Shown: in pieces, positions 1,300 through 58,867 of the stretch | How the letters are laid out: each line of letters begins with the position of its first letter | Numbering within the stretch: position 1 is the stretch's first letter | DNA from: an uncultured bacterium | GTDB lineage: Bacteria > Oederibacteriota > Oederibacteriia > Oederibacteriales > Oederibacteriaceae | Assembly (NCBI GenBank): GCA_965112635.1 | Contig: OZ218778.1 | Span: forward strand, 960,001-1,024,000 | DNA: 64,000 bases | Direction: 5' to 3' | Translations under genes and position numbers: made by a program | Notes under the pieces: model-generated | Seen by the model: the letters and a program-made list of their open reading frames with translations, nothing else | Databases searched by the model: none | Told to the model about the DNA's origin: nothing

Positions 1300-1334
1300 C
1301 ATCATGCCTACGGCATGATAAACAATGGTAGAGT

Positions 1335-1411
1335 CGGGGCGTAGCGCAGTTGGCTAGCGCACCTGCTTTGGGATTAATGATGTGCCAGTTTAGGGCTGTC
1401 TCACCCGACTA
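1335..1411 (+). pseudogene. Disrupted tRNA-Pro (left att junction): intact 5' half plus decayed tRNA-like 3' half
   Basis: 1335-1373 matches 58791-58829 except T1350/C58806; 1374-1411 aligns without gaps to the 3' half but the anticodon stem cannot pair and the end is CTA rather than CCA. Confidence 0.85.
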
Positions 1412-1443
1412 GACAAAAATCTTTGTCCTGGACAGAGAAATAT

Positions 1444-1494
1444 AGGCCTTTGTTTGTAAGGAGATTTTGATACCTTCAAGCAGAGGCCTTTTTC
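1444..1494 (+). terminator. Probable intrinsic terminator downstream of the tRNA fragment
   Basis: AGGCCTTTGTTTG ... CAAGCAGAGGCCT stem followed by a T run. Confidence 0.55.
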
Positions 1495-1548
1495 TTTGTG
1501 ATGGGTAGTAATGGGTAGTGACGGGAAAAGATGGTAAAAAATGGAAAC

Positions 1549-1569
1549 GAATGACACGGATATGACACG
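1549..1569 (+). promoter_or_regulatory. Putative integrase arm-type sites (left)
   Basis: GAATGACACGGATATGACACG (2x ATGACACG), identical to 58698-58718. Confidence 0.7.
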
Positions 1570-1878: not shown

Positions 1879-2214
1879 TTGGAAAATTTATATACTTTCA
1901 TTGAAACACCTATTTTCAGCAAACAGATAGACAAGATGAGAGACAAAGGGCTCCTTCTAGCTATTCAGGAGGAACTGGCAAATAACCCGGAATGTGGAAC
2001 TTTAATCAAGGGTGGAATGAGGAAGGTAAGGATTGCTTCTCCGGCCCGTAGAGAAGGTAAAAGGGGAGGTTACCGCTCTTGGTTTTTCTTCCATAGGGGC
2101 AAAGATACTTTTTACCTGTTGTTTCTTCTGGATAAGAAGGAAGCAGGGAATTTAAGCCATGATCAAGAGAATATTGTTGAGCAAGATTTGAGGGAAGTTT
2201 TAAGGCATCTATAA
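1879..2214 (+). CDS. higB: RelE/HigB-family toxin
   Basis: FIETPIF...NPECG.LIKGGMRKVR...GKRGGYR...K.E..NL pattern; toxin-first order. Confidence 0.85.
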   Translation: MENLYTFIETPIFSKQIDKMRDKGLLLAIQEELANNPECGTLIKGGMRKVRIASPARREGKRGGYRSWFFFHRGKDTFYLLFLLDKKEAGNLSHDQENIVEQDLREVLRHL

Positions 2215-2230
2215 CAGACAAGGGGGAAAT

Positions 2231-2554
2231 ATGGCTAACCGTAAGATGAGTGATAAAGATTTCAATGGATTAAGAGAAAGTATTCATCAGTTTGGTGAAA
2301 TACTTAAGGGCAAAAAGCTTGCTGGAATGAGAGCCAGTATCCATCCCAAGCCTTTGACGCCAGAGGAGATACGAAAAATCAGAACAAAGGTTCTACATGT
2401 TTCTCAAGAAGATTTTGCAGGGATTGTAGGAGAAAGCCTGAGTGCTGTTCGTATGTGGGAGCAAGGGCATCGTAATCCAAGTGGTGCTGTATCGAAGATT
2501 GTTCGGTTGCTGAAAGTACATCCAGAGCGAGCACGTGAATTAATGTTAGTTTAA
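2231..2554 (+). CDS. higA: XRE-HTH antitoxin (HigA-like)
   Basis: IRKIRTK..VSQEDFA...SLSAVRMWEQGHRNPSG; follows the toxin. Confidence 0.85.
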   Translation: MANRKMSDKDFNGLRESIHQFGEILKGKKLAGMRASIHPKPLTPEEIRKIRTKVLHVSQEDFAGIVGESLSAVRMWEQGHRNPSGAVSKIVRLLKVHPERARELMLV

Positions 2555-4030: not shown

Positions 4031-4777
4031 GTGCTAAAGGGGGTTCTTATGCTGGATCAAGATCAAACCCTTCAAAAAGTTGGGAAATGGGTAAAAAAGA
4101 CTTTGGAGGAGAGAGGCATTGAGAAAGTAGCTAAATGGGATGGGCTTGAGTATTGGGCACAAGTGGAATTATACCGATCTTTGACATGTGGAGAGCTTAA
4201 GGGTTTTAAAGGTCTTGGTGGGGGAGAAGTCCGTTACTATACAAACTATTCGTACCGTTCTAAGGATAAAGCTGGAGTTAAAGGTGCTGATTTATTAGCC
4301 ATAAGCGAGGATGATAAAGAAGCATTATGGTTTGAGCTTAAAGATTTGATGCGCTTGAGAAATAGAATAATGGCAAACTGTGCGGGGGTGGGAAAGGATT
4401 TGATGGCATTGGCTGCTTTTCATGCCAAAAAAACTTTTGATGCACTAGAAAAACCAAATGTATTTGCAAAAAACAAGGGAACAGACGGAAGAATGATAGA
4501 TGTTAAAAATGTTTTTGAGAAAGGCAAAACTCACCATAATGGTTTGATCTTAGCCCTTCAGTACAATAAACCAGATCAAAATGGAGAAACAGTATCAGGT
4601 GAAACATGCCGTATGCTTATTCAATTAGCTTACGAAAATCAAATAAAAAATCAACATCTTGAAAAATATAATTTCCCTTCTTCGCCTAAGATGAACATTG
4701 ATTATCAAACGGGGCCATTCAATATTTTATTAGGCATTGTTGAGATTGGGGTTAATAAAGCCATCGAAGGAACTTAG
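4031..4777 (+). CDS. Putative PD-(D/E)XK nuclease-fold protein
   Basis: E.WAQVEL...GADLL...WFELK spacing typical of the restriction-endonuclease fold. Confidence 0.55.
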   Translation: MLKGVLMLDQDQTLQKVGKWVKKTLEERGIEKVAKWDGLEYWAQVELYRSLTCGELKGFKGLGGGEVRYYTNYSYRSKDKAGVKGADLLAISEDDKEALWFELKDLMRLRNRIMANCAGVGKDLMALAAFHAKKTFDALEKPNVFAKNKGTDGRMIDVKNVFEKGKTHHNGLILALQYNKPDQNGETVSGETCRMLIQLAYENQIKNQHLEKYNFPSSPKMNIDYQTGPFNILLGIVEIGVNKAIEGT

Positions 4778-4779
4778 GT

Positions 4780-6219
4780 ATGGATGAAGATATTAGTCTA
4801 AAACATCAGGAAATAGCTTCAACTAGGCTTTCTCCTTCTCGTCTTGTGCAAGCTAGCATATGCCCTCACTTTGCCTACCTAGAAAAATTCGGTAACTCAA
4901 AACTAAAGATACCTGAATCCGCTGGCAATAAACGCAGAAAAGAACAGGGTAAGGTTTGGGAATCTCAGCTTGTTTCAACTATACCTGGCATTGCTGAACC
5001 GGAATGGGACATGAAAAACCTTTCTGCTGGTTTCAAAGCCACTCTTAGCCTCATGACTCAGGGAGTTCCTCATATACATGGTGCCGTACTCATGGGCTCA
5101 GCTTTGGCAGGTATCGCGGATGTGCTCAAAAAAGTCCCTGGTCATTCTAACCTGGGGGACTATGCCTATCTGCCTATTGAGATTAAAAGCCATAAAGAGG
5201 CATCTCTTACAGATATGCTCCAAGCTACTGCTTACAGTGTTCTGTTGGAGAAAGTAATTGGAACTTTTCCTAAGCAGGCAGGCATCTGGCTAAATACAGG
5301 AAAAACTTTCTACTTTGACCCGTCTGAAAAAATAGACTATTTCAACCAAACCCGTGACCAGCTTCAGGATATCTTGGATAACAAGGTTCCGACTGAACCT
5401 ATTTGGTGCAGGATTTGTGTTAACTGTTCCTGGCTGAAGTATTGTAACCAAGCTAGAAAAGATATGGATCACCTTTCCCTTCTCCCTAGCGGTGGTAAGG
5501 GTACGGTGACAAAGTTATATGACGCAGGTATTAAGACTGTTCATCAGTTAGCTAGGATGAAATGGGATGATTTAAAAGGGAAGACTGCTATCAGCGATTC
5601 ATCTCTTGAAAAGCTATGGCTTCATGCCAAGACTAGGGTTGCTGGTAAACCTCTTATGATTAAGAAGCCTGAATTTCCTACCGGTAAGCCGATTATCTTT
5701 TACGACATCGAAACCCTTGAAGATTGCGTGATCTTACATGGGATGATTGTTTTAGATAAGGACGGTGCTAAAACCTCAAAGTTTTTCTTAGCCGAATCAC
5801 CTTCAGATGAAAAGCAGGCTTGGTATGAGTTCCTTGATTTTATGGCCTCATATAAAGACTGCGTGGTTTATACCTGGACTACCTTTGAAAATGATTACGT
5901 AGAGAAATGCTGGAAGCAGTATGGCGGTAACAAAGAAGGTTACAGTAACTTAAAAGGTGGACTTACAGATCAACTTATATGGGTTAAAGAGAGCTTCGCT
6001 TTTCCTGTGAGGAGTTATTCTATCAAAGAGGTAGCTCCTGTTTTTGGCTTCCACTGGGCAGCTGAAGATGCAGGAGGCTTGAACTGTGAGGCGTGGTACG
6101 AAGAATGGCTCGAATCACATGATGAATCATTAAAACAAAAGATTTTGGATTATAACAAGGATGATGTTGTAGCTATGGTGGTGATATATGAAGGATTGCA
6201 GAAATTAAGCCACGAATAA
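4780..6219 (+). CDS. TM0106-family RecB/Cas4-like nuclease with C-terminal RNase H-like domain
   Basis: CP..., D.LKK..Y.PIEIKS, Q.TAYS, C..C..C....C; C-terminal FYDIET...YNKDDV. Confidence 0.85.
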   Translation: MDEDISLKHQEIASTRLSPSRLVQASICPHFAYLEKFGNSKLKIPESAGNKRRKEQGKVWESQLVSTIPGIAEPEWDMKNLSAGFKATLSLMTQGVPHIHGAVLMGSALAGIADVLKKVPGHSNLGDYAYLPIEIKSHKEASLTDMLQATAYSVLLEKVIGTFPKQAGIWLNTGKTFYFDPSEKIDYFNQTRDQLQDILDNKVPTEPIWCRICVNCSWLKYCNQARKDMDHLSLLPSGGKGTVTKLYDAGIKTVHQLARMKWDDLKGKTAISDSSLEKLWLHAKTRVAGKPLMIKKPEFPTGKPIIFYDIETLEDCVILHGMIVLDKDGAKTSKFFLAESPSDEKQAWYEFLDFMASYKDCVVYTWTTFENDYVEKCWKQYGGNKEGYSNLKGGLTDQLIWVKESFAFPVRSYSIKEVAPVFGFHWAAEDAGGLNCEAWYEEWLESHDESLKQKILDYNKDDVVAMVVIYEGLQKLSHE

Positions 6220-6391: not shown

Positions 6392-6733
6392 TTTTTATTC
6401 TCCTTGTATTTTATTTATGATCTATTAATCTTACCACTTCGGCAAAGGACTTCATCAATTTGAAGATAAGAATGTTCATACCAGATGGAATCTTTTGAAT
6501 TCGCATATGGTTCCCAAAGGAATACCTATATAAATTGCTATGGCTTTAAGTTGGTTCGTGGGTGTCTGCCGGATTATCTCTAATAATGTAACTTTTTACT
6601 TACCGTTAGCTACTTCCTTAAAAACCACTCTTTCCTTACCCTTACTTTAGGGCTAGACTCTAAAGTTAAGCCATTCTAAGATTTTTATATATGAAGCTTT
6701 GGCTCTATTAAATTTAGCGGATCAGGAGCGTTT

Positions 6734-9244
6734 ATGCTAAGAGGTAGAACAAAAAAATTAAAAAACATAACGGTTGATACTTATGCCCATAAAGGGAAAA
6801 AACGCATAAATAATCCTCCAGTGGGGTTGGTTTCTAGCGCAACGGATAAACTAAATGGTCGGACAAAATACCAACATGATCCTCATATAGACCCTTTTTT
6901 GAGTTGGACAGGTAAAGCCGAAGGTATGAGTTTTGAAGTTCAAAACGTGAGCCTGCATATTCATGAAAGAATTGAACCGGAACGTATCATTAAGTCTTTT
7001 TTAAATCCGTTGAAACAGAATTCTCAGCTTTCTTTCTTTGATCAACCAGAAAATAATCCTCCATTGACAAAAGCTATTGATTTTTATCGACACGAGCAGG
7101 ATTGGACAAATCGTTTGATTGCTGGTGATTCTCTTCTGGTTATGAATTCACTTCTTAAAAAAGAAGGAATGGCTGGTAAAGTTCAAATGGTTTATATCGA
7201 TCCGCCCTATGGAATTAAATACAATTCGAACTTCCAGCCCTTTGTAAATAAGCGCGATGTTAAAGATGGGAATGACGCTGATATTCCTGCAGAACCTGAG
7301 ATGATTCAGGCCTTTCGTGATATATGGGAGATTGGCATACATAGCTATCTTACCTACCTTCGCGATCGGTTACTACTTGCTAAAGAACTGCTTCATGAAA
7401 GTGGAAGTTGTTTTGTACAGATAAGCGACGAGAATTTACACCATGTTAGGGAGATTTGTGATGAAATATTTGGCAAAGAAAATTTTATTGGTCTAATTTC
7501 CGTGACCAAAACGGCAGGTGGTCTCACTACAGCAAATAGAATTCCTTCAAGATTAGATTACTTAGTCTGGTACTCTAAAGAAATAGCTAAATTGAAATAT
7601 CATCAACTCTATTTTGAACGACCGGATGATATTGAATCTGGATTTAATCAACTTCTGTTGAAAAATGGGGCTGTACGTCGATTAACACTAGACGAGATTT
7701 CTAACCTAAACATAATTCCAAAGGGTTCAAAAATATTTAGATCGGATAGCCTTACAAAACCTGGGCCAGGTTCAAAATATACTATTGAATTAAATGGTCG
7801 AAAATACGACTCGGGTAATAGGTGGTGGGGATCGCCTAAAGAATCAATTCAGAAATTGATAGAAATTGGGCGGGTTAAACCTTTTGGTAATACGCTTAGA
7901 TATTTAAAATTTATTGATGATTTTCCTTTAAAACCTTTAAATAATCTTTGGGATGGGCTAGCTGGCGCAAAAGATATTATCTATGTTGTTCAAACTAATG
8001 ATGAAATAGTAAAAAGATGTCTTCTCATGACCACTGATCCTGGCGACCTTATTATTGACCCAACCTGTGGTTCTGGTACATCTGCTTATGTCGCTGAACA
8101 GTGGGGACGCAGATGGATTACTTGCGATACCTCTCGTGTTGCAATCACTCTTGCCAAACAAAGGCTTATGACTGCAAAGTTTGATTATTACGAGATTGCT
8201 CATCCAACAGAGGGTATTCGTAGCGGTTTTAAATATAAAATTGTACCTCATGTGACCCTTGCCTCTATTGCAAATAACGAACCTTCTAAAGAAGAAACTT
8301 TATATGACCAACCCTTTATTGAAAAGGGTAAGATTCGTGTAACGGGGCCTTTTACAGTTGAGGCAGTGCCGAGTCTCAGAGTAAAACCATTTGACGGACA
8401 TGAGCCAAAAATTGAGGCTGTGAGTGAACAGCTTAGCCGAATAGGTGAGACTGGTAAGCAGTCTGAATGGCGTGATGAGTTAAAATCTACTGGTATTCGT
8501 GCAATTGGTGGAAAAGTCATACAATTTACGCACCTCGAACCTATGGTAGCTACAAGATTTTTGCATGCTGAAGGCGAGATTATCGATTCAGATGGTGAAA
8601 ATAAGCGAGCATATATAAGCTTTGGTTCAGATTTTGGACCGCTAGAACAAAGACAGGTAGAAGAAGCTATAAAGGAAGCGCGGGTACTTAAGAATAAGCC
8701 ACACTTTGTAATTTTTGCAGCGTTTCATTTTGATCCTGAGGCAGCTAAGGATATTGACCAGATAAACTGGCCAGATGTAAAAATCCTTAAGGCTCAGATG
8801 AGTGTTGACCTTTTGACTAAAGACTTGCGTAAGAATCGTTCATCAAGTCACAGCTATTGGCTTATCGGACAGCCAGATGTAGAGGTGAGTAAGATGAGGG
8901 ACGAAAAATTTAAAGTAAAAGTGCATGGGTTTGATTATTACAATCCACTTACCGGTGAGATCGAATCTAAAGGCACAAAACATATTGCTATGTGGTTTTT
9001 GGATACGGATTATGATGAGAGAAGTCTTTATCCGGATCAAGTCTTCTTCCCGGAGAGTGACTCAAAACGAGGTTGGACAAGACTAGCAGATGCTTTGAAT
9101 GGAGAAATTAATGAGGATTTACTTGAAAAATTCTCTGGCGTTGAATCTCTGCCTTTTCTCGGTGGTGAAAATAAAAGGATAGCAGTTAAAATTATTGATA
9201 ATCGTGGAATTGAGTCTTTTGTGATTAAAAAATTGGAGAAATAA
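6734..9244 (+). CDS. mod: Type III RM methyltransferase (Mod-like, beta class)
   Basis: YIDPPYG catalytic motif precedes the IDPTCGSGT SAM-binding motif. Confidence 0.9.
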   Translation: MLRGRTKKLKNITVDTYAHKGKKRINNPPVGLVSSATDKLNGRTKYQHDPHIDPFLSWTGKAEGMSFEVQNVSLHIHERIEPERIIKSFLNPLKQNSQLSFFDQPENNPPLTKAIDFYRHEQDWTNRLIAGDSLLVMNSLLKKEGMAGKVQMVYIDPPYGIKYNSNFQPFVNKRDVKDGNDADIPAEPEMIQAFRDIWEIGIHSYLTYLRDRLLLAKELLHESGSCFVQISDENLHHVREICDEIFGKENFIGLISVTKTAGGLTTANRIPSRLDYLVWYSKEIAKLKYHQLYFERPDDIESGFNQLLLKNGAVRRLTLDEISNLNIIPKGSKIFRSDSLTKPGPGSKYTIELNGRKYDSGNRWWGSPKESIQKLIEIGRVKPFGNTLRYLKFIDDFPLKPLNNLWDGLAGAKDIIYVVQTNDEIVKRCLLMTTDPGDLIIDPTCGSGTSAYVAEQWGRRWITCDTSRVAITLAKQRLMTAKFDYYEIAHPTEGIRSGFKYKIVPHVTLASIANNEPSKEETLYDQPFIEKGKIRVTGPFTVEAVPSLRVKPFDGHEPKIEAVSEQLSRIGETGKQSEWRDELKSTGIRAIGGKVIQFTHLEPMVATRFLHAEGEIIDSDGENKRAYISFGSDFGPLEQRQVEEAIKEARVLKNKPHFVIFAAFHFDPEAAKDIDQINWPDVKILKAQMSVDLLTKDLRKNRSSSHSYWLIGQPDVEVSKMRDEKFKVKVHGFDYYNPLTGEIESKGTKHIAMWFLDTDYDERSLYPDQVFFPESDSKRGWTRLADALNGEINEDLLEKFSGVESLPFLGGENKRIAVKIIDNRGIESFVIKKLEK

Positions 9245-9245
9245 A

Positions 9246-11948
9246 ATGCCAAAAAATATTGATAAATTAATTATCAATAAGCCATACGAGGAGCCACAAG
9301 AGCATTGGCTTTATATTAGAGAGACACAAGATTTTGAACTGAAGTCTGGAAGGCGGAAGTCAGGTTATTGGAGAGCAACTACAAGAAATATAACTAATTT
9401 TGACGATCCTGGTGAATTTGTTGAAATTGAATTGGTTAATAAAATCAGACCGCGAGTTAAGAAGTGGAAAGAAAATGATTATCCAAATATTACTGGTGTG
9501 ACTCGAAAGCTTTTAAGATTTTGGAATGATCATTCTTTAAGGCAACAACCTCTTTTCTGGTGTCAACTTGAGGCCATAGAAACAGCTATTTGGCTTACTG
9601 AGGCTAGCTTAGCCGAAAAGCAGGGTATAAATATTCTTAATGATGGTAGTGCATGGGAAAGGCAGTGTTTAAAACTTGCAACCGGAACTGGTAAAACTGT
9701 CATTATGGCAATGCTGATTGCTTGGCAGGCCCTTAATAAAATAGCTAATAATAAAGATTCTAGATTTTCTCGAAATATTTTAGTGGTTGCTCCTGGATTA
9801 ACAGTGCGCGATCGCTTACAGGTCTTAAAGCCGGAGAACGAGGACAATTTTTATCAGAGTTTCTTACTTGTTGATTCCACAATGTGGCAAGAGCTTTTAC
9901 AGGCTAAAATTATTGTGACTAACTGGCATACATTAGCGCCGTTTAATGAGAATTATGGTCCTAAAGTTGTTAAAAAAGGCCCAGAAAGTGAAGAAGCTTT
10001 TTTCCGTAGGGTTATTTCCGATTTTGGAAATGCTAAAAATATACTTGTTATTAACGATGAGGCTCATCATTGTCATAGGCCTTCTTCTGATGAAGATGAG
10101 GAAGAAAAAGATAAAGCAACTATATGGGTAAGCGGCATTGATCGAATCCATAACGCACGCGGCGTATTAAAGGCATACGATCTTACAGCTACGCCTTTTA
10201 AGCCTACAGGAATGAATAATTTGGGTGAACAACTTTTTACTTGGATTGTTAGCGATTTTGGACTGAATGATGCTATAGAGAGTGGACTTGTAAAAACCCC
10301 TAAAGTTGCTGTGCGGGATGATTCTAATGTGGGTCCTGATTTGAAATCAAAATTATTCCATATTTATCCCTCCGTAAAAGAGGATTTAAACCGTAGGGCT
10401 GAGCCACATGAGGGTTTACCTGATCTTGTGAGAAACGCTGTAAATATATTAGGTGGTGACTGGCTGAGAGAAAAAGAATCGTGGGAAAAGCAAAACCCTC
10501 CTAGAGAAACGCCGCCAGTTATTATTGTTATTTGCAATCGCACTGAAACAGCGGCTCGTTTGGAATATTCGCTAGAGAATGGATATTTTTCTATTAATGA
10601 ATTAAGTGACAAAAATAGATTTATTCGTATTGACCAGGATGCGTTAGATAAAATTGAATCTGGCGATGAAGATAAATTGATCGGTTCAGGAAAAGATTTG
10701 GTAAAAAAGGAACGTGATAAATTCAACACTGTTGGAAAAAAAGATCGACCAGGTGAGCAAATACAATGTGTTATTGGCGTAAACATGCTTTCGGAGGGAT
10801 GGGATGCTCGAACGGTTACTCACATCCTTGGTTTGCGTGCTTTCACAAGCCAACTTTTATGTGAGCAGGTTATAGGACGAGGTTTGCGCCGTATTTCTTA
10901 TGACGTTAATGATGATGGTTTTTATGAACCAGAATATGTGACTGTATTTGGTGTTCCTTTTACATTCCTTCCTGCTGAACAGAAAATCGGTGTGCCAAGG
11001 ATTGAGAAACCTAAAACAAAGATTGAACCTGTTGTGGATAGAAAGGAACTAAAGATTGATTGGCCTCATGTATTAAGAGTGGAATACAAACTGAGTTATT
11101 TTCTTGATCTTGATTGGAATAAATTAGAAAAACTTACCCTTTCCGCGGAAGACGCACCTACAATTGTAGAGGTTGCCCCTGTTATTGATGGTAAACCAAA
11201 ATATGACCAACTAAGTGAGATAGATTTAGAACGTCTTGCCGAAGAACATCGTTTACAACAACTAAAACTGCAGGCTGCAGTTAGACTACATGAACAATTA
11301 GGTAAAAACTGGGAGGGGGATGCCGGTAGTCATATTAGCCAACTGATGCAATTATTTGATGACTTTTTAATATCAAACAAACTTGATATTAAAGTCCCTC
11401 TATTTGCGGGTACGGAAAAGTTAAGAAATATTGTTATTGCTCTGAATGCTCAACGAATAATAAATCATATCGGCAATTTCATTCGCAGTTCTAGTAAAGA
11501 AATTCCAAATCTAGTTCTTGACCCTGTTAGACCAAAAAGAAGTACATCAACGGCTATGATCTGGTATACAACAAAACCTACACAGCCGGTGAAAAAGAGT
11601 CAAATAAGCCATATTGTTATTGATAGTGGTTGGGAAAAGGTTGGGTTTGAATTTGAGCGCAATAGGATTTCTAGTTTAATTTCTTGGGTAAAGAACGACC
11701 ACCTTGGATTTGAAATTTACTACCTTTGGCAAGGGCAAGCTAAAACTTATTATCCGGATTATATTATTAGATTTAATGCTGAACGCTACATGGTTCTTGA
11801 AATTAAAGGTCAGATAAAAGAACAGGATAAGGCAAAGTGGCAAGCTGCTAAAGAGTGGATACAGGCAGTTAATGCAAATGGTTTGTTTGGAACGTGGGAG
11901 TTCAAGGTACTAGATGATCCGAGATTGCTTTTTGAGGTTATTAAATAA
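9246..11948 (+). CDS. res: Type III RM restriction subunit (Res-like SF2 helicase-nuclease)
   Basis: KLATGTGKT, DEAHH, LSEGWD, EQVIGRGLRR; C-terminal YYPDY...LEIKG. Confidence 0.9.
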   Translation: MPKNIDKLIINKPYEEPQEHWLYIRETQDFELKSGRRKSGYWRATTRNITNFDDPGEFVEIELVNKIRPRVKKWKENDYPNITGVTRKLLRFWNDHSLRQQPLFWCQLEAIETAIWLTEASLAEKQGINILNDGSAWERQCLKLATGTGKTVIMAMLIAWQALNKIANNKDSRFSRNILVVAPGLTVRDRLQVLKPENEDNFYQSFLLVDSTMWQELLQAKIIVTNWHTLAPFNENYGPKVVKKGPESEEAFFRRVISDFGNAKNILVINDEAHHCHRPSSDEDEEEKDKATIWVSGIDRIHNARGVLKAYDLTATPFKPTGMNNLGEQLFTWIVSDFGLNDAIESGLVKTPKVAVRDDSNVGPDLKSKLFHIYPSVKEDLNRRAEPHEGLPDLVRNAVNILGGDWLREKESWEKQNPPRETPPVIIVICNRTETAARLEYSLENGYFSINELSDKNRFIRIDQDALDKIESGDEDKLIGSGKDLVKKERDKFNTVGKKDRPGEQIQCVIGVNMLSEGWDARTVTHILGLRAFTSQLLCEQVIGRGLRRISYDVNDDGFYEPEYVTVFGVPFTFLPAEQKIGVPRIEKPKTKIEPVVDRKELKIDWPHVLRVEYKLSYFLDLDWNKLEKLTLSAEDAPTIVEVAPVIDGKPKYDQLSEIDLERLAEEHRLQQLKLQAAVRLHEQLGKNWEGDAGSHISQLMQLFDDFLISNKLDIKVPLFAGTEKLRNIVIALNAQRIINHIGNFIRSSSKEIPNLVLDPVRPKRSTSTAMIWYTTKPTQPVKKSQISHIVIDSGWEKVGFEFERNRISSLISWVKNDHLGFEIYYLWQGQAKTYYPDYIIRFNAERYMVLEIKGQIKEQDKAKWQAAKEWIQAVNANGLFGTWEFKVLDDPRLLFEVIK

Positions 11949-12826: not shown

Positions 12827-15226
12827 ATGATCGATCCTAAAATAATTTCAATTCACAAGAAGTACTCTTTCTTGTTAAGTATGTCTGAAGATGATTTTCG
12901 CGACAAAGTTGTACGCCCTTTATTTTTGCGCATGAAACTTACTGATGGAAGGGATTTGTGTGGCGTAAATGAAAATGGAAGGGATACTCTTTTTATAGGA
13001 CAAAACAGTCTTAGGCAGGAAGAATTATATTATATACAAACAAAGAAAGGTAAATTGAATAAAACAGCAAAAGCAGCACAAAATGTGATTACTTCTATTA
13101 CACAATTAATAACTGCATTACAAACATGTTATATTTTTGTGACAAATAAAAGAAAGGTTTACCCTAGTCATGTGTTGTTGTGTGCAAGCGGAACAATTAA
13201 TGATGAGGCTCGAAAACATATATACGATACGGTTAAAGATCCGAGAGTTAAATTTTATGACAGCGATGATCTAATACCTTTAATTGACGAGTTGTATCCT
13301 GAATTATGGTTGGGTATTGATGCAGATAAATTACCTTATTTAAAAAATTTGAAAAAATGTTTAGAACAAATTAGTGAAAGTTCATTTTTAACAGATTTAG
13401 TGGCTGTAGATTCGAAATCCACAGTTGTTACAAATGAATTGTATGTTACGTTAAAACTAAATTTTTCTGAAGAAGCTACTAAGCAATATAGAGGCAAGAC
13501 GATTCATGAGCCCAAAATCGTTGAAATTCCAGCAGAGGCAATTTTAAGGAAGCCGCAAAATAATATTCTTATTTTGGGCGGACCAGGATCTGGGAAATCA
13601 ACAATTATTAAACGAATAGCTTATGTTTTGTGTGAGCAGCTTATAAAAGATAACCTTTCAGTAAATTTACCTGTTTTATTACGTGCGATTGATATCGTAG
13701 ATTCTCAAGATGATCTGATGAGCATTTGTAATAAATCAATGCAAGAAATCGCTTTATCTAGCAAACCATGCTTTTCGGTAGATGACTTACAAAACGGTAA
13801 CTTAACAATTTTAATTGATGCGCTTGATGAGGTCGCTGATGTAGATAAAATTAAAAAGATATTAAGTAAAGTTGAGGAGTTTGGCCAAAAGTTTATTAAG
13901 TGCAAGATAATTCTTACCTCTAGAGAATATACATATATTAAAAATTTAGAAGAACTGAAAAAATATGCAGAATACAGGGTAAGTAATATTGATTTTACTC
14001 AGGCAATGAAAATAATTGAGAAATTAAGCAAAAGAAAATCTTGCCCCAGAGGTGTTTTGCAGGAAACGATAAGACGGCTACAGGATATTCATGGAGTAAC
14101 CCTTAGTCCTTTGTTGGTAACAGTATTTGTAGCAACCTCAGACTATTCACGAAAAGATATACCAGCCAATATTACTGAGTTGTTTAAAAAATTCACTGAA
14201 ATGATGCTAGGAAGGTGGGATTCAACTAAGGGTCTTAGCCAACAATATCATTCCAATTTAAAGGATTTTCTTTTGAGAAGGTTGGCCTATGAAATGCATA
14301 AAGATGGAAAAGTTATTATTGATGAGAAATATTGCATAGAATTTTTTACTCAAGAATTAGAAATAAGGGGACAAAGACATAGTGATATTGCAATATTAAT
14401 ACAGGAAATATTACATCGTTCCGGTCTTTTCCGTTGTAATGAGGGAAAGGTTGAGTTTAGACATCTATTGCTACAAGAATTTTTTGCGGGAAGAGGTATC
14501 CAAAATCCTTCCGAAGTTATTGAATTGATTAAAGCACAATGGTGGCAACGTGCAATAATATTTTATTTTGGCGAAAATCCAGGTGATAGCAATACGCTGG
14601 AAAAGACAATTTCCGATTTAAATACAGTGAATGTTAATGAAAGATTTATAGCAACAGTTACATTAGGATTAGCTGTCCAGGCGTGTTATTTAATACATGT
14701 TTCCCATAAATATAACTTTTTACGTTGGATAATATTGGGATTAGCTGAAATTAAGGATGATTTACTTAAAGAAATATTAAATCAAGGGCACAAATATCCT
14801 ATTACATTATTTATTCTATATTATTTATTTGGGAGAGATTCAGTCGCATTTGATATTTTAGATAGGTGTTCACCAACCTTTTTAGAAGAAATACTCCAAG
14901 AATGCAAAAATGAAAACAGCAAAGAAACGGTCAGGTTTTGGTTTATTGTTGGATTATTTGAGTGTGGTTATTTAAAAGAGGCGCAAATACAATTAAAAAA
15001 TTTCAGGCCAAAAGATGAAAGGTTATTATTAGCTTTGCATTTGGGTTGTTGTTTGATAGAAAATGTTAAAGTAATTGATGGAGAAAAACGAATTCTAGCT
15101 CGAAAAATACGGGATGGTTTCACACCAAGAATTAACCATTTAATACTTCAGGTGAAAGATGAATATAAGTCGGATCTACTAGAAGTAAGGAAAAATAAAA
15201 TTGAGGCTATAGAATATAAGCAATAA
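12827..15226 (+). CDS. NACHT/STAND NTPase with N-terminal Mrr-like nuclease (probable antiphage protein)
   Basis: GGPGSGKS, ILIDALDE, ILTSR, PLL, FRHLLLQEFFA; N-terminal E...GRD...IQTK. Confidence 0.82.
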   Translation: MIDPKIISIHKKYSFLLSMSEDDFRDKVVRPLFLRMKLTDGRDLCGVNENGRDTLFIGQNSLRQEELYYIQTKKGKLNKTAKAAQNVITSITQLITALQTCYIFVTNKRKVYPSHVLLCASGTINDEARKHIYDTVKDPRVKFYDSDDLIPLIDELYPELWLGIDADKLPYLKNLKKCLEQISESSFLTDLVAVDSKSTVVTNELYVTLKLNFSEEATKQYRGKTIHEPKIVEIPAEAILRKPQNNILILGGPGSGKSTIIKRIAYVLCEQLIKDNLSVNLPVLLRAIDIVDSQDDLMSICNKSMQEIALSSKPCFSVDDLQNGNLTILIDALDEVADVDKIKKILSKVEEFGQKFIKCKIILTSREYTYIKNLEELKKYAEYRVSNIDFTQAMKIIEKLSKRKSCPRGVLQETIRRLQDIHGVTLSPLLVTVFVATSDYSRKDIPANITELFKKFTEMMLGRWDSTKGLSQQYHSNLKDFLLRRLAYEMHKDGKVIIDEKYCIEFFTQELEIRGQRHSDIAILIQEILHRSGLFRCNEGKVEFRHLLLQEFFAGRGIQNPSEVIELIKAQWWQRAIIFYFGENPGDSNTLEKTISDLNTVNVNERFIATVTLGLAVQACYLIHVSHKYNFLRWIILGLAEIKDDLLKEILNQGHKYPITLFILYYLFGRDSVAFDILDRCSPTFLEEILQECKNENSKETVRFWFIVGLFECGYLKEAQIQLKNFRPKDERLLLALHLGCCLIENVKVIDGEKRILARKIRDGFTPRINHLILQVKDEYKSDLLEVRKNKIEAIEYKQ

Positions 15227-17745: not shown

Positions 17746-17757
17746 TGAATTTTATTG

Positions 17758-17977
17758 GGTTTTCCGTTTCCGCTCCATATATAGGTGTGAAAAACCAGAA
17801 AACCATATCTCTAAAGGGAAAAGGGTGTTTTTTATTTGGTTCGTTTTTTACTGCATATCTTAAAGAGCATAAAACTTAGCTTAGGCTAAGAAAGGGGTGT
17901 TCCACAAGTCACTATGACTTGTGAACTAAGGTTTGTTGGTTTCCTAACTGTATATATGGACTCGAAACCGGAAAACC
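17758..17977. repeat. Inverted iteron-like repeats (putative origin) after primase A
   Basis: GGTTTTCCGTTTCCGCTCCATATATA (17758) is an imperfect inverted repeat of 17951-17977; GAAAACC copies; internal palindrome 17903-17923. Confidence 0.5.
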
Positions 17978-46793: not shown

Positions 46794-47153
46794 CCTGAAG
46801 GCACCATGAAATTTTACGTCCTAATAAACGATATCCCGGACTGGGTGACTTTTAAGATCTACACCACATCCTTCAGGTTGGTTAAAATTCTTTTAGTGGA
46901 GAGTCTGCAAAACAGCGGATTGATGCAGTTGTTCTATGACAGGGGATTGCTGAATTACAGGTTTGACATACCTTACGATATTAAGGATTGGTACGGGAAA
47001 CCCTTGGCAAATGGTTTATATTACTACGCTTTAGATGCAAGTAAAACATATGCCACCAAATCAAATGTACTCTATAGGGTTATCGGAAAGTTCGTGGTAC
47101 GGAGATGAGGTGGATTGTAATTCTTCAATGCTAATAAATTAGGCTAATTGTTT

Positions 47154-52176: not shown

Positions 52177-53611
52177 GATTATGTCAAGTTTTCGGGTGTA
52201 AGTTGTTAAGTCCACGGGTAGTAGGTTAAGCAACATTTAGCAAGCCTTCCTGAACCAGATCACCTCCTTGAGATTTCCAGAGTTTTCTTTTAGACCAATT
52301 ATCTTCCTGAGTGGTAGAAACAGACCAGACGATCTTAGCGACCTCCAATTCGGAGTGCATGGTGCCGGCAGCACGGGTGCGCCGTTTGATCTCGGCGATA
52401 AAGCGTTCGATGAGATTGCTGGAGCGGAGAGTGCGCCAGACATGCTGGGGTTCGTTCATGAAGGTGGTGAGGTTGTCGAACCTATCGAGAGCCATAGCCG
52501 TAGCTCTAGGATAGAGTTTCATCCAGCGAGCTTGGAGGCGGCCAAAGGCCTGGAGAGCCAGTTTGCGGGAATCGGCCCAATAGATAGCTTTGAAATCGTT
52601 AAGGAAGGCACCCCAGTCACGGCGAGGCATAATGGCTCTGAGGTTTCGGATCTTGTGGACCAGGCAGAGCTGGTGAGGGACAGCCAGGAGGTTTTTGACG
52701 GCCTGCTCAATGGCCTTGTGTTCATCGGAGATGACGAGCCTGAGGGTGTTGCGGTTAAGGCCTCTTTTGAGGAGGTCATTGATAAAAGCCTGCCAGGAGT
52801 CCAAGGACTCTCTATCGCCGAGAAGGAAACCCAGGACATGGCGATTGCCAAAGGAATCCATGCCTAGGGCGAGCAATAGAGCTTGTTTGGAGGTAAAACC
52901 AGGTCTTCTGACAGGCAGGTAGGCGGCGTCCAGGAGCAGGTAGGTGATGTTGGGAGGAATGGGACGATTCATCCACTGACGGATGGCTGGCTCCAAGGCG
53001 TTGGTGAGAGTGGAGACGGTGGAGTGAGAGAGCTTTGTGCCCAAAGCGGCATTTATCTCAGCGGCGGTAGAGCGAGTGGCAGCGCCTTTGAGCCAGAAGC
53101 GGATGGCGAGGAAGGAAGCCAGGCCTTTTCCAGCTTGTTTGAGGGCGGTAAGCAAGGGCGAGTGAAGGGACCCCTGGCGTAGAGCTGGTTTGTGCAGAAA
53201 AAGTCTGCCAAAAAAGCCGGGGACAGAGGTGGATTTAAAACCGTTTCTTTTAGGGCTGTTTTCAAGGCGTTCATAAGGCTGACGGCCCAAAAACTCGTCC
53301 CTTTCAGCCTCCAGTTGAATATCTAAAGCCTGGGCAATGATGGCATTGACCTCCTGGCCAATTACTTCCAGAGCGACACCGGGCTGAGCGATCTTCCTGA
53401 CTTTTTCTCTGATTTTCTGGTTCGTATAAATCTCAATTCTTTGGGATAATGACTTCACGGGTGTAGACCTCCTTTTAGTTTGGGTTTGGTGACCTAGACA
53501 ATCACCTAGTCTACGCCCGTGGACTTATTTTTGGGGCCGCAAGGTTAGATTGCTGCAATCTAACCTTGCCTTTCCCCTCGTTGAAGTTACACCCAGGAAT
53601 GGTACACAACC
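52177..53611 (-). mobile_element. IS256-family element copy 3 (1435 bp)
   Basis: Same TIRs as copy 1; TSD TGCTTAAT. Confidence 0.95.
52226..53458 (-). CDS. IS256 transposase
   Basis: Protein identical to the other copies. Confidence 0.95.
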   Translation of the reverse strand: MKSLSQRIEIYTNQKIREKVRKIAQPGVALEVIGQEVNAIIAQALDIQLEAERDEFLGRQPYERLENSPKRNGFKSTSVPGFFGRLFLHKPALRQGSLHSPLLTALKQAGKGLASFLAIRFWLKGAATRSTAAEINAALGTKLSHSTVSTLTNALEPAIRQWMNRPIPPNITYLLLDAAYLPVRRPGFTSKQALLLALGMDSFGNRHVLGFLLGDRESLDSWQAFINDLLKRGLNRNTLRLVISDEHKAIEQAVKNLLAVPHQLCLVHKIRNLRAIMPRRDWGAFLNDFKAIYWADSRKLALQAFGRLQARWMKLYPRATAMALDRFDNLTTFMNEPQHVWRTLRSSNLIERFIAEIKRRTRAAGTMHSELEVAKIVWSVSTTQEDNWSKRKLWKSQGGDLVQEGLLNVA

Positions 53612-54654: not shown

Positions 54655-57336
54655 ATGAAAAACAAAAACGGTATTAAAGGAGAAATAAATGACGGTGATC
54701 TGTTCAAGCAGATTGATATAAAGAAATTTTTTAGTGAAAGGGTAAAAGGTTTTAAGACAAACGGAAACGGACAAGCTACGGGTCACTGCCCGTTTCATGA
54801 TGATACTAACCCTTCTTTTAGTGTAAATATTATTGACGGTCTATGGATATGTCACGCTTGCGATGCCAAGGGAAATTTTTACCAGTTCGAAATGAAGCTT
54901 AGCAGCGTTGATTTTAAGACCGCTGTTAATAATGTTGAGAAATGGCATAACACCTCAAGCGCCAATTCTCAACCTAAACCTGTAATTAAAGCAACGTATG
55001 ATTATACAGATGAGAATGGGAACTCTTTATTTCAAACCGTCCGTTACGAACCTAAAGCATTCAAACAGAGGCGGTCCAATGGAAAGGGTGGCTGGATTTG
55101 GAATCGTAAGGGCGTTAAGAGCGTGCTCTATCACCTGCCTCAAATCAAAGCTGCCGATACCGTATATATAGTGGAAGGCGAGAAGGACAGCGAGACTCTA
55201 AGCGGTTTAGGATTAACTGCAACAACAAGCCCAATGGGTGCTGGAAATTGGAAGCCAGATTACAACTGTTATTTAAAAGACAAAAATATTGTCTGCCTCC
55301 CCGATAACGATTCAAAAGGTAAAAATCACATGGAAGAAGTAGCCGGGCAATTAAAGGGTGTTGCAAAGTCAGTCAAAGTTGTTCTCCTGCCAAACCTACC
55401 AGAGAAAGGCGACGTAACGGATTGGTTAGGCAAGGGTGGTACTAAAGAAGCTCTTGTTGAGCTTGTTCAACTAACACCAGAATGGGAGCCATCTGAAGAG
55501 CAACAAGGTGAAGAAACTAAGGTAGAGAAATCAAAGTTCAAAATACTAATGAAGATTGGGGAAAATCTTTCACTATTCCATGACCAATACAGAATTCCGC
55601 ATGGTTTTTTGGACGGAAACACAGTGCCTTTGACGGATATAGACTTTGGATGTTGGTTAAGCCATCAGTTCTATAAAAAAACAGGTCTAGGTTTAGGCAG
55701 TGAAACACTAAAACAGGCAATTAATACTTTGTCTGGAATTGCAATATTTGACGGAAAAGAATATGTCCTTGAAAATCGGGTGGCAAGTGACAAAGGTTGC
55801 TGTTGGTATGATATGGGCGATGATAGAGCTATAAAAATAACTGGCACAGGTTGGAAAATAGTTAAAGCACCAATACTATTTAAGCGGTATATGCATCAGA
55901 GGATTCAGGTTGACCCTATACCAAATGGAAATGTTAACCGGCTATTTGAACTGGTAAAAATTAATAAAAACGATCAACTTCTTTTTATTGTTTACGTAAT
56001 CACTTGTTATATCGCTGACTTTCCTCACCCAGTAATGCATTTGACTGGAGCGCAAGGAGCAAGCAAATCTACCGTTTGTTGCATATTAAAAAAGTTAATT
56101 GATCCATCCAAAGTTGAATTGCCAGAAATCCCTCGAGATAAACAGGAGCTTATCCAAACACTTTCTCATCACCATGTGAGCTACTTCGACAACCTTTCCG
56201 AGATTTCGGATTGGTTGTCTGACCTTCTTTGCCGTGCTGTTACTGGACTTTCTGCTGCTAAGCGTACGCTATATACAAATGATCAGGATTTTATTCTAAG
56301 TTTTAAGCGGTGCGTAGGTTTGAGTGGAATCACTGGGCTAATAAATAAACCGGATCTTTTGGATAGGGCTATCCCATTTTATCTAGAACCTATTACTGAA
56401 GAAGAGCGGATGGAGGAGTCTGTTTTATGGGAAAAGTTTGAGCAGATTCGACCTGAAATATTAGGGGGTATATTTGACTTAATATCTAAGGCCATCCAAA
56501 TTCATGCAACGATTAAAACGTCTAAGTTGCCTCGTATGGCAGATTTCGCTAAATGGGGCTTCGCAATAGCTGAGGCTTTGGGAGTTAATGGCGAAGTGTT
56601 CCTTAAACAATACAGAGCTAAGATTGAGACTCAGAATAACGAAGTATTGGAAGGCCATCTTCTAGCTAAAGCTGTCACGAATTTCATGGCAGATAAAACG
56701 GATTGGATAGGAACAGTCAAGGGGGCCTTGGAGGAATTAAAAAAACTGGTTGTAATTGAGAAAGGGGACGAGACATTTCCTAAAGCTTACAGGTCATTAA
56801 GGCCTTACCTTGAAACTATCAGAACAAACTTAATGGCAGTTGGAATTACTTATAAAATTAGTGATAAGCCAACTTCAGAGGGTTATCGAATTTGTTTTAA
56901 GAAGAACTTTTTTGGTTCAGAAATAGATTCATCTAAAAAAGCCTTGGAAACCAATAGTAATCAAGCAAATGAACTAAATGAACTAAATTCTTCTATATCT
57001 ATAGGTGCAGCAAAGAGCTGTGAGCAATTAGCTAGAGAGGAGATAGTTCTCCAAACAATGGTAGATGAAAAAAGGGCTGTTTGTTTTTGGTATATAGAAA
57101 ATATGGTTAAGAGCAAGGGCATTGATACAGAACTATTAAAAACTATTTTAAATCAATTGTTATTGGAGAAGCGAATATTAAGCAGGGATAATTTACTAAT
57201 TCAATATAATAATTGTTCGCGATTAGTTTATGGTCCATTTTATGAATACAATAAGACCTTTTCTCCCAAACCTGTTATACCTTCTCCTAGTCCTGTTACT
57301 CCACCCCTTGATCCTAACAGTACAATTAAGTTTTGA
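54655..57336 (+). CDS. Primase-helicase B: CHC2 zinc finger + TOPRIM + P-loop (SF3-like) domain
   Basis: CPFHDD...CHAC; VEGEKD, PDND; GAQGASKS, YFDN, DLLDR. Confidence 0.85.
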   Translation: MKNKNGIKGEINDGDLFKQIDIKKFFSERVKGFKTNGNGQATGHCPFHDDTNPSFSVNIIDGLWICHACDAKGNFYQFEMKLSSVDFKTAVNNVEKWHNTSSANSQPKPVIKATYDYTDENGNSLFQTVRYEPKAFKQRRSNGKGGWIWNRKGVKSVLYHLPQIKAADTVYIVEGEKDSETLSGLGLTATTSPMGAGNWKPDYNCYLKDKNIVCLPDNDSKGKNHMEEVAGQLKGVAKSVKVVLLPNLPEKGDVTDWLGKGGTKEALVELVQLTPEWEPSEEQQGEETKVEKSKFKILMKIGENLSLFHDQYRIPHGFLDGNTVPLTDIDFGCWLSHQFYKKTGLGLGSETLKQAINTLSGIAIFDGKEYVLENRVASDKGCCWYDMGDDRAIKITGTGWKIVKAPILFKRYMHQRIQVDPIPNGNVNRLFELVKINKNDQLLFIVYVITCYIADFPHPVMHLTGAQGASKSTVCCILKKLIDPSKVELPEIPRDKQELIQTLSHHHVSYFDNLSEISDWLSDLLCRAVTGLSAAKRTLYTNDQDFILSFKRCVGLSGITGLINKPDLLDRAIPFYLEPITEEERMEESVLWEKFEQIRPEILGGIFDLISKAIQIHATIKTSKLPRMADFAKWGFAIAEALGVNGEVFLKQYRAKIETQNNEVLEGHLLAKAVTNFMADKTDWIGTVKGALEELKKLVVIEKGDETFPKAYRSLRPYLETIRTNLMAVGITYKISDKPTSEGYRICFKKNFFGSEIDSSKKALETNSNQANELNELNSSISIGAAKSCEQLAREEIVLQTMVDEKRAVCFWYIENMVKSKGIDTELLKTILNQLLLEKRILSRDNLLIQYNNCSRLVYGPFYEYNKTFSPKPVIPSPSPVTPPLDPNSTIKF

Positions 57337-57350
57337 GGCGGGTGACTATT

Positions 57351-57632
57351 ATGGCAAAACTCATCAATTTACCTACCCGTCTCGTTCCTGAAGGCGAAAA
57401 TAATGACAGACTGTTATCGGATCAACAGGTCGCTGAACTGGCAATCGTATCTATCAACACTGTGCGTTATTGGCGGCAAATTGGTAAGCTGCCTTTTGTC
57501 AAAGTGGGTAAGCATCCTCAGGTATGGCTGTCTGTATTTAATAAAGTATTTGGAAAGCCTGTATTTCAGGGTGGCGTTAATTCTGATAACATGAAACCTG
57601 TCCAGGACATTAGGAGGATTTCAAATGGGTAA
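57351..57632 (+). CDS. xis: Excisionase-like HTH protein
   Basis: LLSDQQVAEL...SINTVRYWRQ.GKLPFVKVG; overlaps the integrase start. Confidence 0.75.
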   Translation: MAKLINLPTRLVPEGENNDRLLSDQQVAELAIVSINTVRYWRQIGKLPFVKVGKHPQVWLSVFNKVFGKPVFQGGVNSDNMKPVQDIRRISNG

Positions 57633-58779
57633 ACCTAATGCCAAGAATTTACCTCCCCATCTGAGGAAAGATGATGGGGGTTATTTTATAGATTATTTTG
57701 TTGAAGAACTGGGGGTGAAGAAAAGAAAGCGCGTGCGTCTTGGGCATGTTCCTTTGGTTCAAGCAAAAAGCGTTCTGAGCGATCATATGCAGGCCATTGT
57801 TAAAGGGAAATTTTTGTTGGAGCAAAAACCAAAGATTACTTTTAATGAGGCTGCGGATAATTTCTTGGCTTTTTCTAGAGCGAGAAGGAAGCGGTTTGGG
57901 GATGATGAGCGGATGGTAAAAAACCTTAAAAGCTTCTTTGACAAACGTCCTCTGGAAAGCTTGACACTTGATCAGGTTGAGGAATATGTGTCTTTTAGGC
58001 GGAATGAAGCCAGGAAGGACAAAGAAATATGCGGGGTTTTAAGGAAGGGCATTGAGCTTAAAGCAGCTTCGCTCAATAGAGAACTTGCTTGTTTGAGAAC
58101 TGTTGTGAGACGGGCTATTTTGAACAGGCAAATTGATCGTAACCCAATTGAGGGATTAAAGTTATTTAAGGAAACTTTCAGGGATAGAACCCTTACGCCT
58201 GAGGAGTACCAGCGGCTTTTAGCCGCCTGCGCACCACATCTCAAGATTATCGTACAATTGGCGTATGATTCTGCCATGAGAAAAGGCGAGATTCTTGGAT
58301 TGAAATGGGAGCAGATAAACTTTAGGGAAGGGGTTATTATCCTGGATGCCGCTGATACTAAAACCCAGGAAAAACGGGAGATTCCACTGGATGAGAAGCT
58401 CGTCAGTTTATTGCAGGGACTCCCAAAAGTACCTGGCTGTCCTTTCGTGTTCACGTACCAGAAAAGAGGGCTGGTGACTATCATGACTGCTTTCAAAGCT
58501 GCATGCCGAAGAGCCAATATTAAGGATCTACATTTTCATGACCTTCGGCACTGCTCAATTACTAATTTTCGGAAGGCAGGGGTTAGTGATAATACTACCA
58601 TGTCTATTTCTGGGCATAAGACGCATGATGTTTTCAAAAGGTACGACCGTATTGACAGGGGAGATCGCCAAAAAGCATTGGAACAGGTTAGAAAAATGAA
58701 TGACACGGATATGACACGAACAACATTTGGCGCACCTCTTTCAAAGGAAGAAGTGGTAAAATCGTTATCCTGTAACTAA
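57625..58779 (+). CDS. int: Tyrosine recombinase/integrase
   Basis: MRKGEI, KT, FHDLRH, ISGHKT, RYD catalytic set. Confidence 0.95.
   Translation: MGKPNAKNLPPHLRKDDGGYFIDYFVEELGVKKRKRVRLGHVPLVQAKSVLSDHMQAIVKGKFLLEQKPKITFNEAADNFLAFSRARRKRFGDDERMVKNLKSFFDKRPLESLTLDQVEEYVSFRRNEARKDKEICGVLRKGIELKAASLNRELACLRTVVRRAILNRQIDRNPIEGLKLFKETFRDRTLTPEEYQRLLAACAPHLKIIVQLAYDSAMRKGEILGLKWEQINFREGVIILDAADTKTQEKREIPLDEKLVSLLQGLPKVPGCPFVFTYQKRGLVTIMTAFKAACRRANIKDLHFHDLRHCSITNFRKAGVSDNTTMSISGHKTHDVFKRYDRIDRGDRQKALEQVRKMNDTDMTRTTFGAPLSKEEVVKSLSCN
58698..58718 (+). promoter_or_regulatory. Putative integrase arm-type sites (right)
   Basis: Identical 21-mer to 1549-1569. Confidence 0.7.
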
Positions 58780-58790
58780 AATTGTTCAGT

Positions 58791-58867
58791 CGGGGCGTAG
58801 CGCAGCTGGCTAGCGCACCTGCTTTGGGAGCAGGGGGTCGCCCGTTCAAATCGGGCCGCCCCGACCA
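58791..58867 (+). tRNA. tRNA-Pro (TGG)
   Basis: Full cloverleaf: CGGGGCG/CGCCCCG, GCGC D-stem, CCTGC-TTTGGGA-GCAGG, TTCAAAT, encoded CCA. Confidence 0.97.

Follow-up and report, generated by a model that had tools for sequence, protein, structure and literature searches.

Which half of a tRNA gene does an integrated island rebuild, from what DNA is the rebuilt gene then transcribed, and does its host come to depend on the island? These questions are raised by a stretch of 64,000 nucleotides from an uncultured bacterium (the window), in which an island sits within a tRNA-Pro gene and supplies its 5' half. Restoration of the 3' part is the norm, as the earlier note stated: of the 3919 islands counted by Islander, 3760 have a 3' fragment and 159 have a 5' fragment (Hudson, Lau, Williams; PMC4383910, Table 1).

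Junctions of the island and the rebuilt tRNA gene

The junctions and their neighborhood comprise the following features.

12..587, + strand: rph (RNase PH), host gene; TIGR01966 above cut-off; 5' end probably before the window
592..1200, + strand: rdgB (XTP/dITP diphosphatase), host gene; NF011397/TIGR00042; upstream of the native tRNA-Pro site
1332..1373, + strand: left junction; host-derived tRNA-Pro 5' half, broken copy; loop at 1367-1373; no ARAGORN or Rfam call
1374..1411, + strand: P' arm of the island begins; in-register match of 19/38, possibly a decayed 3' half of tRNA-Pro
58788..58829, + strand: right junction; 5' half contributed by the island, with the overlap; loop at 58823-58829
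58791..58867, + strand: intact hybrid tRNA-Pro(TGG); 5' half from the island and 3' half from the host; called by ARAGORN and Rfam
58921..60249, + strand: HemN-like radical SAM gene; first gene past the island, host-like GC

The island is bounded by a direct repeat (1332-1373 and 58788-58829, offset 57,456 nt) that is identical at 41 of 42 positions. It consists of the 3 nt preceding the tRNA, the 5' half of the gene, and the 7-nt anticodon loop, and it ends at the last base of that loop. GC content is 0.40 within the island versus 0.55 and 0.54 on its flanks. The duplication of the 5' half as far as the anticodon loop, the broken copy behind rph-rdgB, and the intact tRNA 11 nt past the integrase stop (the integrase gene ends at 58779 and the tRNA starts at 58791) had all been claimed before and are all borne out. 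Integration almost certainly produced a dead 5' half after rdgB, together with a functional hybrid gene next to the integrase gene. The hybrid gene, which scores 63.6 bits with Rfam, is the single tRNA found in the window by ARAGORN and Rfam alike.

That the native site lies behind rph-rdgB is supported by the related loci described below. The pair is present in three of them (L052, L053, and L055), and in all three an intact Pro(TGG) gene directly follows rdgB, so that the geometry survives the check on relatives that the earlier note had set for it. The gene after Pro(TGG) in these relatives is Arg(TCT) and not a hemN-like gene, and no homologues of the HemN-like, arabinofuranosidase, and galactosidase genes were found in the 77 related loci. 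The best named relatives of RdgB that carry a phylum label belong to Elusimicrobiota and Firestonebacteria, at approximately 56%.

The sole mismatch in the repeat is T1350 versus C58806, and the difference itself agrees with the earlier note, which took C58806 to be a D-loop variant contributed by the island. That assignment follows if the crossover is placed in the anticodon loop; alternatively, T1350 could be a later change in the dead left copy. An assembly artefact or a chance repeat is another conceivable explanation, and the window does come from a single assembly. However, the GC step, the putative integrase arm sites at clade-standard spacing from both ends, and the same geometry in other genomes make this explanation barely credible.

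The island has the features of the Islander 5' class, in which a 5' fragment lies upstream of an intact tRNA in the same orientation, with a tyrosine integrase gene in between, a length of 2-200 kb, and an anticodon-centered site. Its left fragment is intergenic, outside coding domains and other tRNAs, and lies upstream of the intact gene in the same orientation; the 57,456-nt offset falls within the length range; and the integrase in the interval matches PF00589 at 88.7 bits, with the Xer and integron models all below cut-off. The identity block is bounded by the 7-nt loop, and a pair of putative arm-type sites lies to either side of the core, as expected of an anticodon-loop (A) site in a sublocation scheme reportedly due to Williams in 2002. 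There is no difference in kind between this island and the Islander 5' class, and it exemplifies cleanly a minority already described, approximately 4% of tRNA islands. The geometry is therefore not novel, and the earlier note's idea that such a gene might be transcribed from a promoter in the element is also already in print. PMC4383910 goes no further than a count of the 5' class; neither promoters nor switching among the integrases of one clade are discussed there.

Integrase, attachment-site arms, and cargo

The genes and sites within the island that are relevant to its integration and stability are as follows.

1444..1500, + strand: terminator-like hairpin and U-tract in the P' arm; hairpin 1444-1489, -23.7 kcal/mol, z -5.06
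1549..1569, + strand: putative arm-type site pair, P' arm; 21 bp, identical to 58698-58718; distance to the loop 185 nt
1879..2554, + strand: RelE/HigB-like toxin and HTH antitoxin pair; PF06296, PF15731/PF01381
3002..3629, + strand: VapBC-like pair; 82-aa ORF (AbrB-like by eye) and PIN protein (PF01850)
6734..11948, + strand: type III restriction-modification (mod, res); PADLOC MTase_III and REase_III, Pfam
54655..57336, + strand: DnaG-like primase; PF01807, phrog_239; heads the primase-xis-int run
57333..57632, + strand: excisionase-like HTH gene; PF12728 below cut-off, weak phrog_66; overlaps primase and int
57625..58779, + strand: tyrosine integrase (int), 384 aa; PF00589; catalytic residues intact
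58698..58718, + strand: putative arm-type site pair, P arm; inside int, at its 3' end; loop 122 nt downstream
58754..58762, + strand: extended -10-like motif TGGTAAAAT; candidate promoter, inside int, without a -35 element

The integrase retains its catalytic set (R219/K246/H305/R308/H331/Y340), and its homologues, in the best 120 listed with itself excluded, are 52-61% identical. The primase, the excisionase-like gene, and int form overlapping ORFs (54655-58779), and the excisionase-like gene has a homologue match in 59 of the 77 related loci. Each copy of the 21-bp repeat comprises two units 11 nt apart, and we read the repeats as putative arm-type integrase sites, for which the lambda-like integrases provide the comparison model. 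The P-arm copy encodes the DTxMT C-terminal tail, which is conserved in most of the aligned integrase homologues, and the P' arm-to-loop distance is 176-188 nt in five relatives versus 185 nt in the window. The P' hairpin is missing from the output of a simple scan; with a pattern drawn from these same sequences, all 10 of the complete islands show it, whereas none of 71 integrase-side arms does.

Besides the two toxin-antitoxin pairs and the restriction-modification system, the island carries a second primase, RadC, DUF932, a STAND NTPase, three identical copies of an IS256-family element, and assorted other cargo. Neither virion nor T4SS/relaxase families were found in 59 ORFs searched with Pfam or 23 searched with PHROGs, a negative that leaves aside ORFs shorter than 90 aa and many unassigned ORFs and is compatible with divergent genes. 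No internal tRNA fragments were found within the island. A tblastn search against phages and plasmids gave only matches below 60% identity, those listed being 24-31% identical, and yielded no free attP for comparison. In gene content alone, which includes an integrase, an excisionase-like gene, a primase, cargo, and a tRNA target, the island resembles the PICI-like elements and tycheposons, whose targets, in the part of the preprint consulted, include tRNA Pro-TGG and Ser-TGA (bioRxiv 10.1101/2020.12.28.424599). It differs from the elements described there in being 57 kb long and probably composite.

The best overall explanation, and in our judgment a probable one, is that an integrative cargo element rebuilt the 5' half of tRNA-Pro(TGG). 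The 57.4-kb element, with its tyrosine integrase, Xis-like gene, and primase, would have recombined with the host gene at the 7-nt anticodon loop, and the predicted reversal by Int and Xis would restore the native gene.

Arrangement and its apparent switching among related integrases

A scan of GTDB genomes with a 34-sequence integrase alignment gave 228 matches, of which the best-scoring 80 were kept. These correspond to 77 loci in 25 genomes, mostly of candidate division FCPU426 (FCPU426/Firestonebacteria), and each locus was classed from the DNA that follows the int stop. Within this set (best 80 of 228 matches), int is followed by an intact tRNA on its own strand in 21 of the 77 loci, classed as 5' replacements, at Ser-TGA (nine loci), Ser-CGA and Phe-GAA (three each), and Thr-CGT, Arg-TCG, and Leu-CAG (two each). 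The 3' arrangement accounts for 49 loci: 37 with a canonical 3' fragment, and 12 in which a convergent tRNA or fragment follows int, the canonical form with the strand flipped. One further locus is doubtful (L068) and six are unclassified. The far end is visible in four of the 21 5'-type relatives (L013, L021, L026, and L011), the other 17 being classed from the int end. A 5' fragment that stops at or within approximately 3 nt of the loop lies at the far end in three of the 21 (L013, Ser-TGA; L021, Ser-CGA; L026, Arg-TCG), and L011 has the P' arm and lacks the fragment. L017 is followed by the P' arm of another element and is ambiguous; it could be a whole-tRNA tandem. Finders restricted to 3' fragments would miss more than a quarter of the elements of this clade (21 of 77 loci, best 80 of 228 matches).

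In canonical relatives (L061, L042, L053, and L054) identity begins at the 5' base of the anticodon loop, and in the window the repeat ends at its 3' base. The distance from P arm to loop is 122 nt in the window and 122-126 nt in 20 of 22 5'-type ends; it is 121-125 nt in 21 of 36 3'-type ends, 100-102 nt in another 11 of the 36, and 102 nt in 10 of 12 flipped ends (in this set L024 was left out and separately gave 123 nt, L030 had no arm call, and the loops of L038 and L076 were misassigned). These distances point to a crossover in the anticodon loop that is common to all forms. The attP of the clade is likely to be laid out as in lambda, and the attP of the window island to hold the 5' half of the tRNA on the integrase side and not the 3' half on the far side.

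Other elements use the 5' end of a tRNA gene. In the part of the report seen, the Mycobacterium abscessus MabA1 prophages at attB-5, in tRNA-Met, are described as one exception (Dedrick et al. 2021; PMC8092301). Those are prophages of Actinomycetota, whereas the element here is a cargo island without phage character, in tRNA-Pro of an uncultured lineage, and one of many in its clade. In Klebsiella, islands enter arg2 at its 5' end with a crossover assigned to the D-loop, through a mostly dedicated subclade, I.d, according to the portion of the preprint used (bioRxiv 10.1101/2020.11.02.365908). Like the island in the window, they lie upstream of the tRNA with a 5' repeat, and one tRNA may bear islands on both sides (compare L017). 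The crossover described there is in the D-loop, whereas here the identity runs through the anticodon loop, a site shared with sister integrases that restore the 3' half.

The earlier note had proposed setting the phylogeny of the integrase against att geometry. In a careful tree of 78 integrases (22 5' rows, 49 3' rows, and seven unlabelled), the 5'/3' label needs seven changes, with a bootstrap range of 7-8; the count gives no direction and rests on the int-end class for 17 of the 21 5'-type relatives. Assignment of the 5' labels preceded sight of any tree; once the first tree was available, seven rows of unknown label were reassigned to 3' on the evidence of their sequences. At least five changes are forced by starred branches, no bootstrap tree has a single change (0%), and a single clade of the 5' rows is rejected (AU p 1e-26). 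Both geometries occur in sister lineages at Thr-CGT (L017 and L056, 5', versus L027, L028, and L045; support 100/99) and at Phe-GAA (L032 and L033, 5', versus L024; support 99/96), with the 5' class of these loci read at the int end alone. The flipped form is one group nested among the Asp-targeting 3' forms, and the integrase of the window sits on a long branch with no starred placement. The integrase family thus appears to have swapped between the 5' and 3' arrangements several times, and we consider it likely that the clade adopts the 5' arrangement recurrently, as a state that can be switched, and that the arrangement is not a one-off. We found nothing on 5'/3' switching within one clade, or on this clade, in the open-licence papers searched. 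The clade is valuable because close relatives within it show both the common and the rare geometry, which allows two points to be tested: how an element shifts from restoring one tRNA half to restoring the opposite one, and how transcription of the rebuilt gene is achieved.

The P' arm bears on the first of these points. Positions 1374-1411 match the 3' half of tRNA-Pro in register at 19 of 38 positions (shuffle p 3e-4; 18 of 57,379 island 38-mers match as well), and the P' side of L026 likewise shows an in-register match of 19/38 to the 3' half of its tRNA. No such relic was found in L013 or L021, so that two of the four fully seen 5'-type islands keep one. The P' side carries a relic in one of four strand-flipped islands, where it is marginal (p 0.044), and a decayed 5' half was significant in none of 15 integrase-side arms of the 3' type (L024 was tested one base out of register). 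These matches might suggest that attP carried a whole tRNA-Pro, so that both junctions were intact at first and the left copy then decayed in this host. Such a history is highly improbable, because the decay is one-sided, with one difference in 42 positions of the 5' half versus 19 in 38 of the 3' half, and because the relic is missing from L013, L021, and all 15 of the tested 3'-type integrase-side arms. The near identity of the 5' half indicates instead that the relic arose in the attP lineage, earlier than the present insertion. The pattern, noticed post hoc in two of four cases, is compatible with an ancestral attP of the 3'-restoring type, which would have acquired a 5' half and whose 3' half then decayed.

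More tentatively, the whole clade may toggle among 3'-restoring, 5'-restoring, and flipped 3'-restoring forms, with crossover and arm spacing constant, through a whole-tRNA attP intermediate in which the redundant half decays. About half of the sampled genomes would then transcribe housekeeping tRNAs (Ser-TGA with Ser-GCT behind it, Phe, Leu, and Pro) from mobile DNA without a conserved dedicated promoter. Such transcription would couple the transcription of int, or the processing of its mRNA, to tRNA supply.

Transcription of the rebuilt gene and retention of the island

The host promoter region is 57 kb away from the hybrid tRNA, and the terminator-like hairpin lies approximately 70 nt into the island. 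If the hybrid copy is used, it would therefore be transcribed from island DNA, and to this extent the earlier note's claim of expression under island control is supported. We consider it very likely that transcription from rph-rdgB stops at the P' hairpin and that the hybrid gene is read from the island. The transcript could start at the extended -10 at 58754, come by read-through of the terminator-less primase-xis-int run, or start at an unrecognised promoter, and it would then be trimmed by RNase P, an established step of tRNA processing. Read-through is possible because there is no strong hairpin between the P arm and the tRNA (z -1.63).

The earlier note had singled out TGGTAAAAT as the source. 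The motif is indeed present, and several features favor it: it lies 28 nt ahead of the tRNA; it is one of only two such sites in the 5.2 kb upstream and belongs to an uncommon class (0.012 per 56 nt on the island + strand); and a similar site occurs at -31 in L006 and L010. However, most 5'-type relatives lack it, and a consensus promoter scan of 57200-59200 listed neither TGGTAAAAT nor any other site ahead of the intact tRNA. A GGT(A/C)AAA motif is also found in the P' arms of eight of 10 complete islands, including that of the window at 1533, so that the motif may be an att-arm site. The promoter role claimed for TGGTAAAAT is thus doubtful, although it may yet prove correct.

Nor did scoring of the related loci single out a promoter. 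A score of at least 9 within 60 nt was reached by three of the 22 5'-type ends, by three of the 36 3'-type ends, and by 7.8% of windows taken at random from the island; the method has low power, as only four of 54 native tRNAs reach that score. The mean score was higher at 5'-type than at 3'-type ends (5.1 versus 2.9, p 0.009, the loci not being independent) and was 5.2 in random island DNA. When the range was extended to 400 nt, five of the 22 5'-type ends had promoter-like sites, compared with 15 of the 36 3'-type ends, where most of the matches take the arm repeat as their -35 element. Our own scoring found no promoter motif specific to the 5'-type ends (22 versus 36 ends).

The lack of a convincing strong promoter could mean that the hybrid tRNA is silent or a minor copy and that the host relies on another Pro(TGG) gene, with no dependency; a repressed xis-int operon also seems a poor source for a housekeeping tRNA. 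We regard this as unlikely, because the hybrid gene is perfectly intact. Moreover, 13 of the 25 genomes have the 5'-type arrangement at tRNAs in high demand, a recurrence that is easier to understand if the rebuilt gene works.

The earlier note went on to propose that dependence on a rebuilt tRNA would favor hosts in which the integrase end is retained. In its full form, a dedicated promoter at TGGTAAAAT drives the only Pro(TGG) gene of the host. CCA codons, which need a UGG tRNA under the wobble rules, are in use (seven of 104 Pro codons in five host ORFs), and L011, without its 5' fragment, may be locked in. Yet precise excision would restore the native gene, and 5' sites show no excess occupancy: among the 25 genomes (best 80 of 228 matches), Ser-TGA (5') is occupied in nine, Asp (3') in 12, and Leu-CAA (3') in seven. 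Two toxin-antitoxin pairs and a type III restriction-modification system offer a more ordinary route to stability. We therefore consider selection for retention through the tRNA rather unlikely. Because excision by Int and Xis would rebuild the native gene, the arrangement would amount to no addiction, and selection would act solely against losing the integrase end imprecisely.

A stronger, tested dependency is found in tRNA-dependent lysogeny, in which, in the part of the paper drawn on here, the core is approximately 10 bp, no junction tRNA is rebuilt, and a separate phage tRNA complements the loss (Guerrero-Bustamante and Hatfull 2024; PMC10865867). As would be the case in the window, an essential tRNA is supplied from the DNA of the element, and related integrases differ in how they restore the tRNA. 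The island in the window differs in having a 42-bp core, an intact tRNA at the junction, and no second tRNA in the window. For practical use, attP-integrase vectors derived from this clade would have to supply transcription for the target tRNA.

The integrase tail and promoter-like arm repeats

At 384 aa, the integrase of the island exceeds most of its relatives by about 15 aa (they are mostly 356–371 aa among the homologues listed), and its extra tail (58735–58779) covers DNA that in the relatives is the noncoding att arm. At the 3' ends of the integrase genes of the related loci L004, L022, L029, L038, L041, L051, and L070, the arm repeat (a putative arm-type Int site) matches the -35 hexamer perfectly, and a weak -10 lies at the correct spacing from it. 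This combination is present alike in 3'-type elements (in which the island supplies the tRNA's 3' half) and 5'-type elements (in which it supplies the 5' half), and it could represent an outward promoter that overlaps the Int arm site and is regulated by Int.

Junctions and neighboring tRNAs

All nine 5'-type loci at tRNA-Ser(TGA) (L003, L005–L010, L013, and L020) carry a Ser-GCT gene 171–511 nt past the integrase stop codon, and therefore this second tRNA may also have been deprived of its host promoter. The far-side arm (4690–4830) of L011, a 5'-type island in tRNA-Ser(CGA), lacks the 5' tRNA fragment; the island may be locked in, or the locus may represent a nested insertion. In L017, an intact tRNA-Thr lies between two arms, the integrase-side one upstream and the far-side one downstream of it (about 11127–11420); this arrangement may reflect either islands on both sides or a whole-tRNA tandem. 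Finally, the tRNA-Arg(TCT) island of L055 has a 3' half at each end (6664–6708 and 11132–11208), and these two differ at many positions, which indicates that the island exchanged the host 3' half for a divergent one.

At 58868–64000 of the window, beyond the rebuilt tRNA-Pro, lie a HemN-like gene and genes for arabinoside use. In the relatives in candidate division FCPU426, this place is taken by a tRNA cluster, Arg-His-Arg-Lys; the region downstream of tRNA-Pro may carry an older change, either an insertion or a rearrangement. At the left flank, between rdgB and the broken tRNA copy, lies a related pair of REP-like hairpins (1202–1300), each followed by an identical 9-nt tail. The second has a fold z of -3.72, and the pattern has no other occurrence in the window or the 77 related loci.

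Cargo and possible composite structure of the island

Features of the island (window coordinates)
4780–6219 and 12827–15226: TM0106-family RecB-like nuclease and STAND NTPase, on either side of type III RM genes
15862–22375 and 54655–57336: two separate DnaG-like primase genes
27688–29125, 45359–46796 (inverted), and 52177–53611: three IS256-family (Mutator) copies
30038–31623: N-terminal part of a PbeC/DndD-like ATPase, then an overlapping, unassigned ORF
31994–34535: three STAS-domain paralogues, adjoining a DUF4912 gene
43833–45383: unassigned 516-aa ORF with 66-nt Thr/Pro/Ser-rich repeats

Its two primase genes, one of them with RadC, DUF6876, and DUF932 behind it, suggest that two elements may have combined to form the island, although a search of the island for internal tRNA fragments found none. 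The IS256-family copies are 100% identical to one another and have apparent 8-bp target duplications, which suggests that transposition within the island was recent, and inverted pairs could allow inversion of island-internal segments. The 516-aa repeat ORF extends into the end of one copy. The nuclease, type III RM genes, and STAND NTPase form a possible defense cluster. The PbeC/DndD-like gene, which has no recognized partner genes, looks like a split phosphorothioation-type gene. The STAS-domain paralogues share 66–80% DNA identity.
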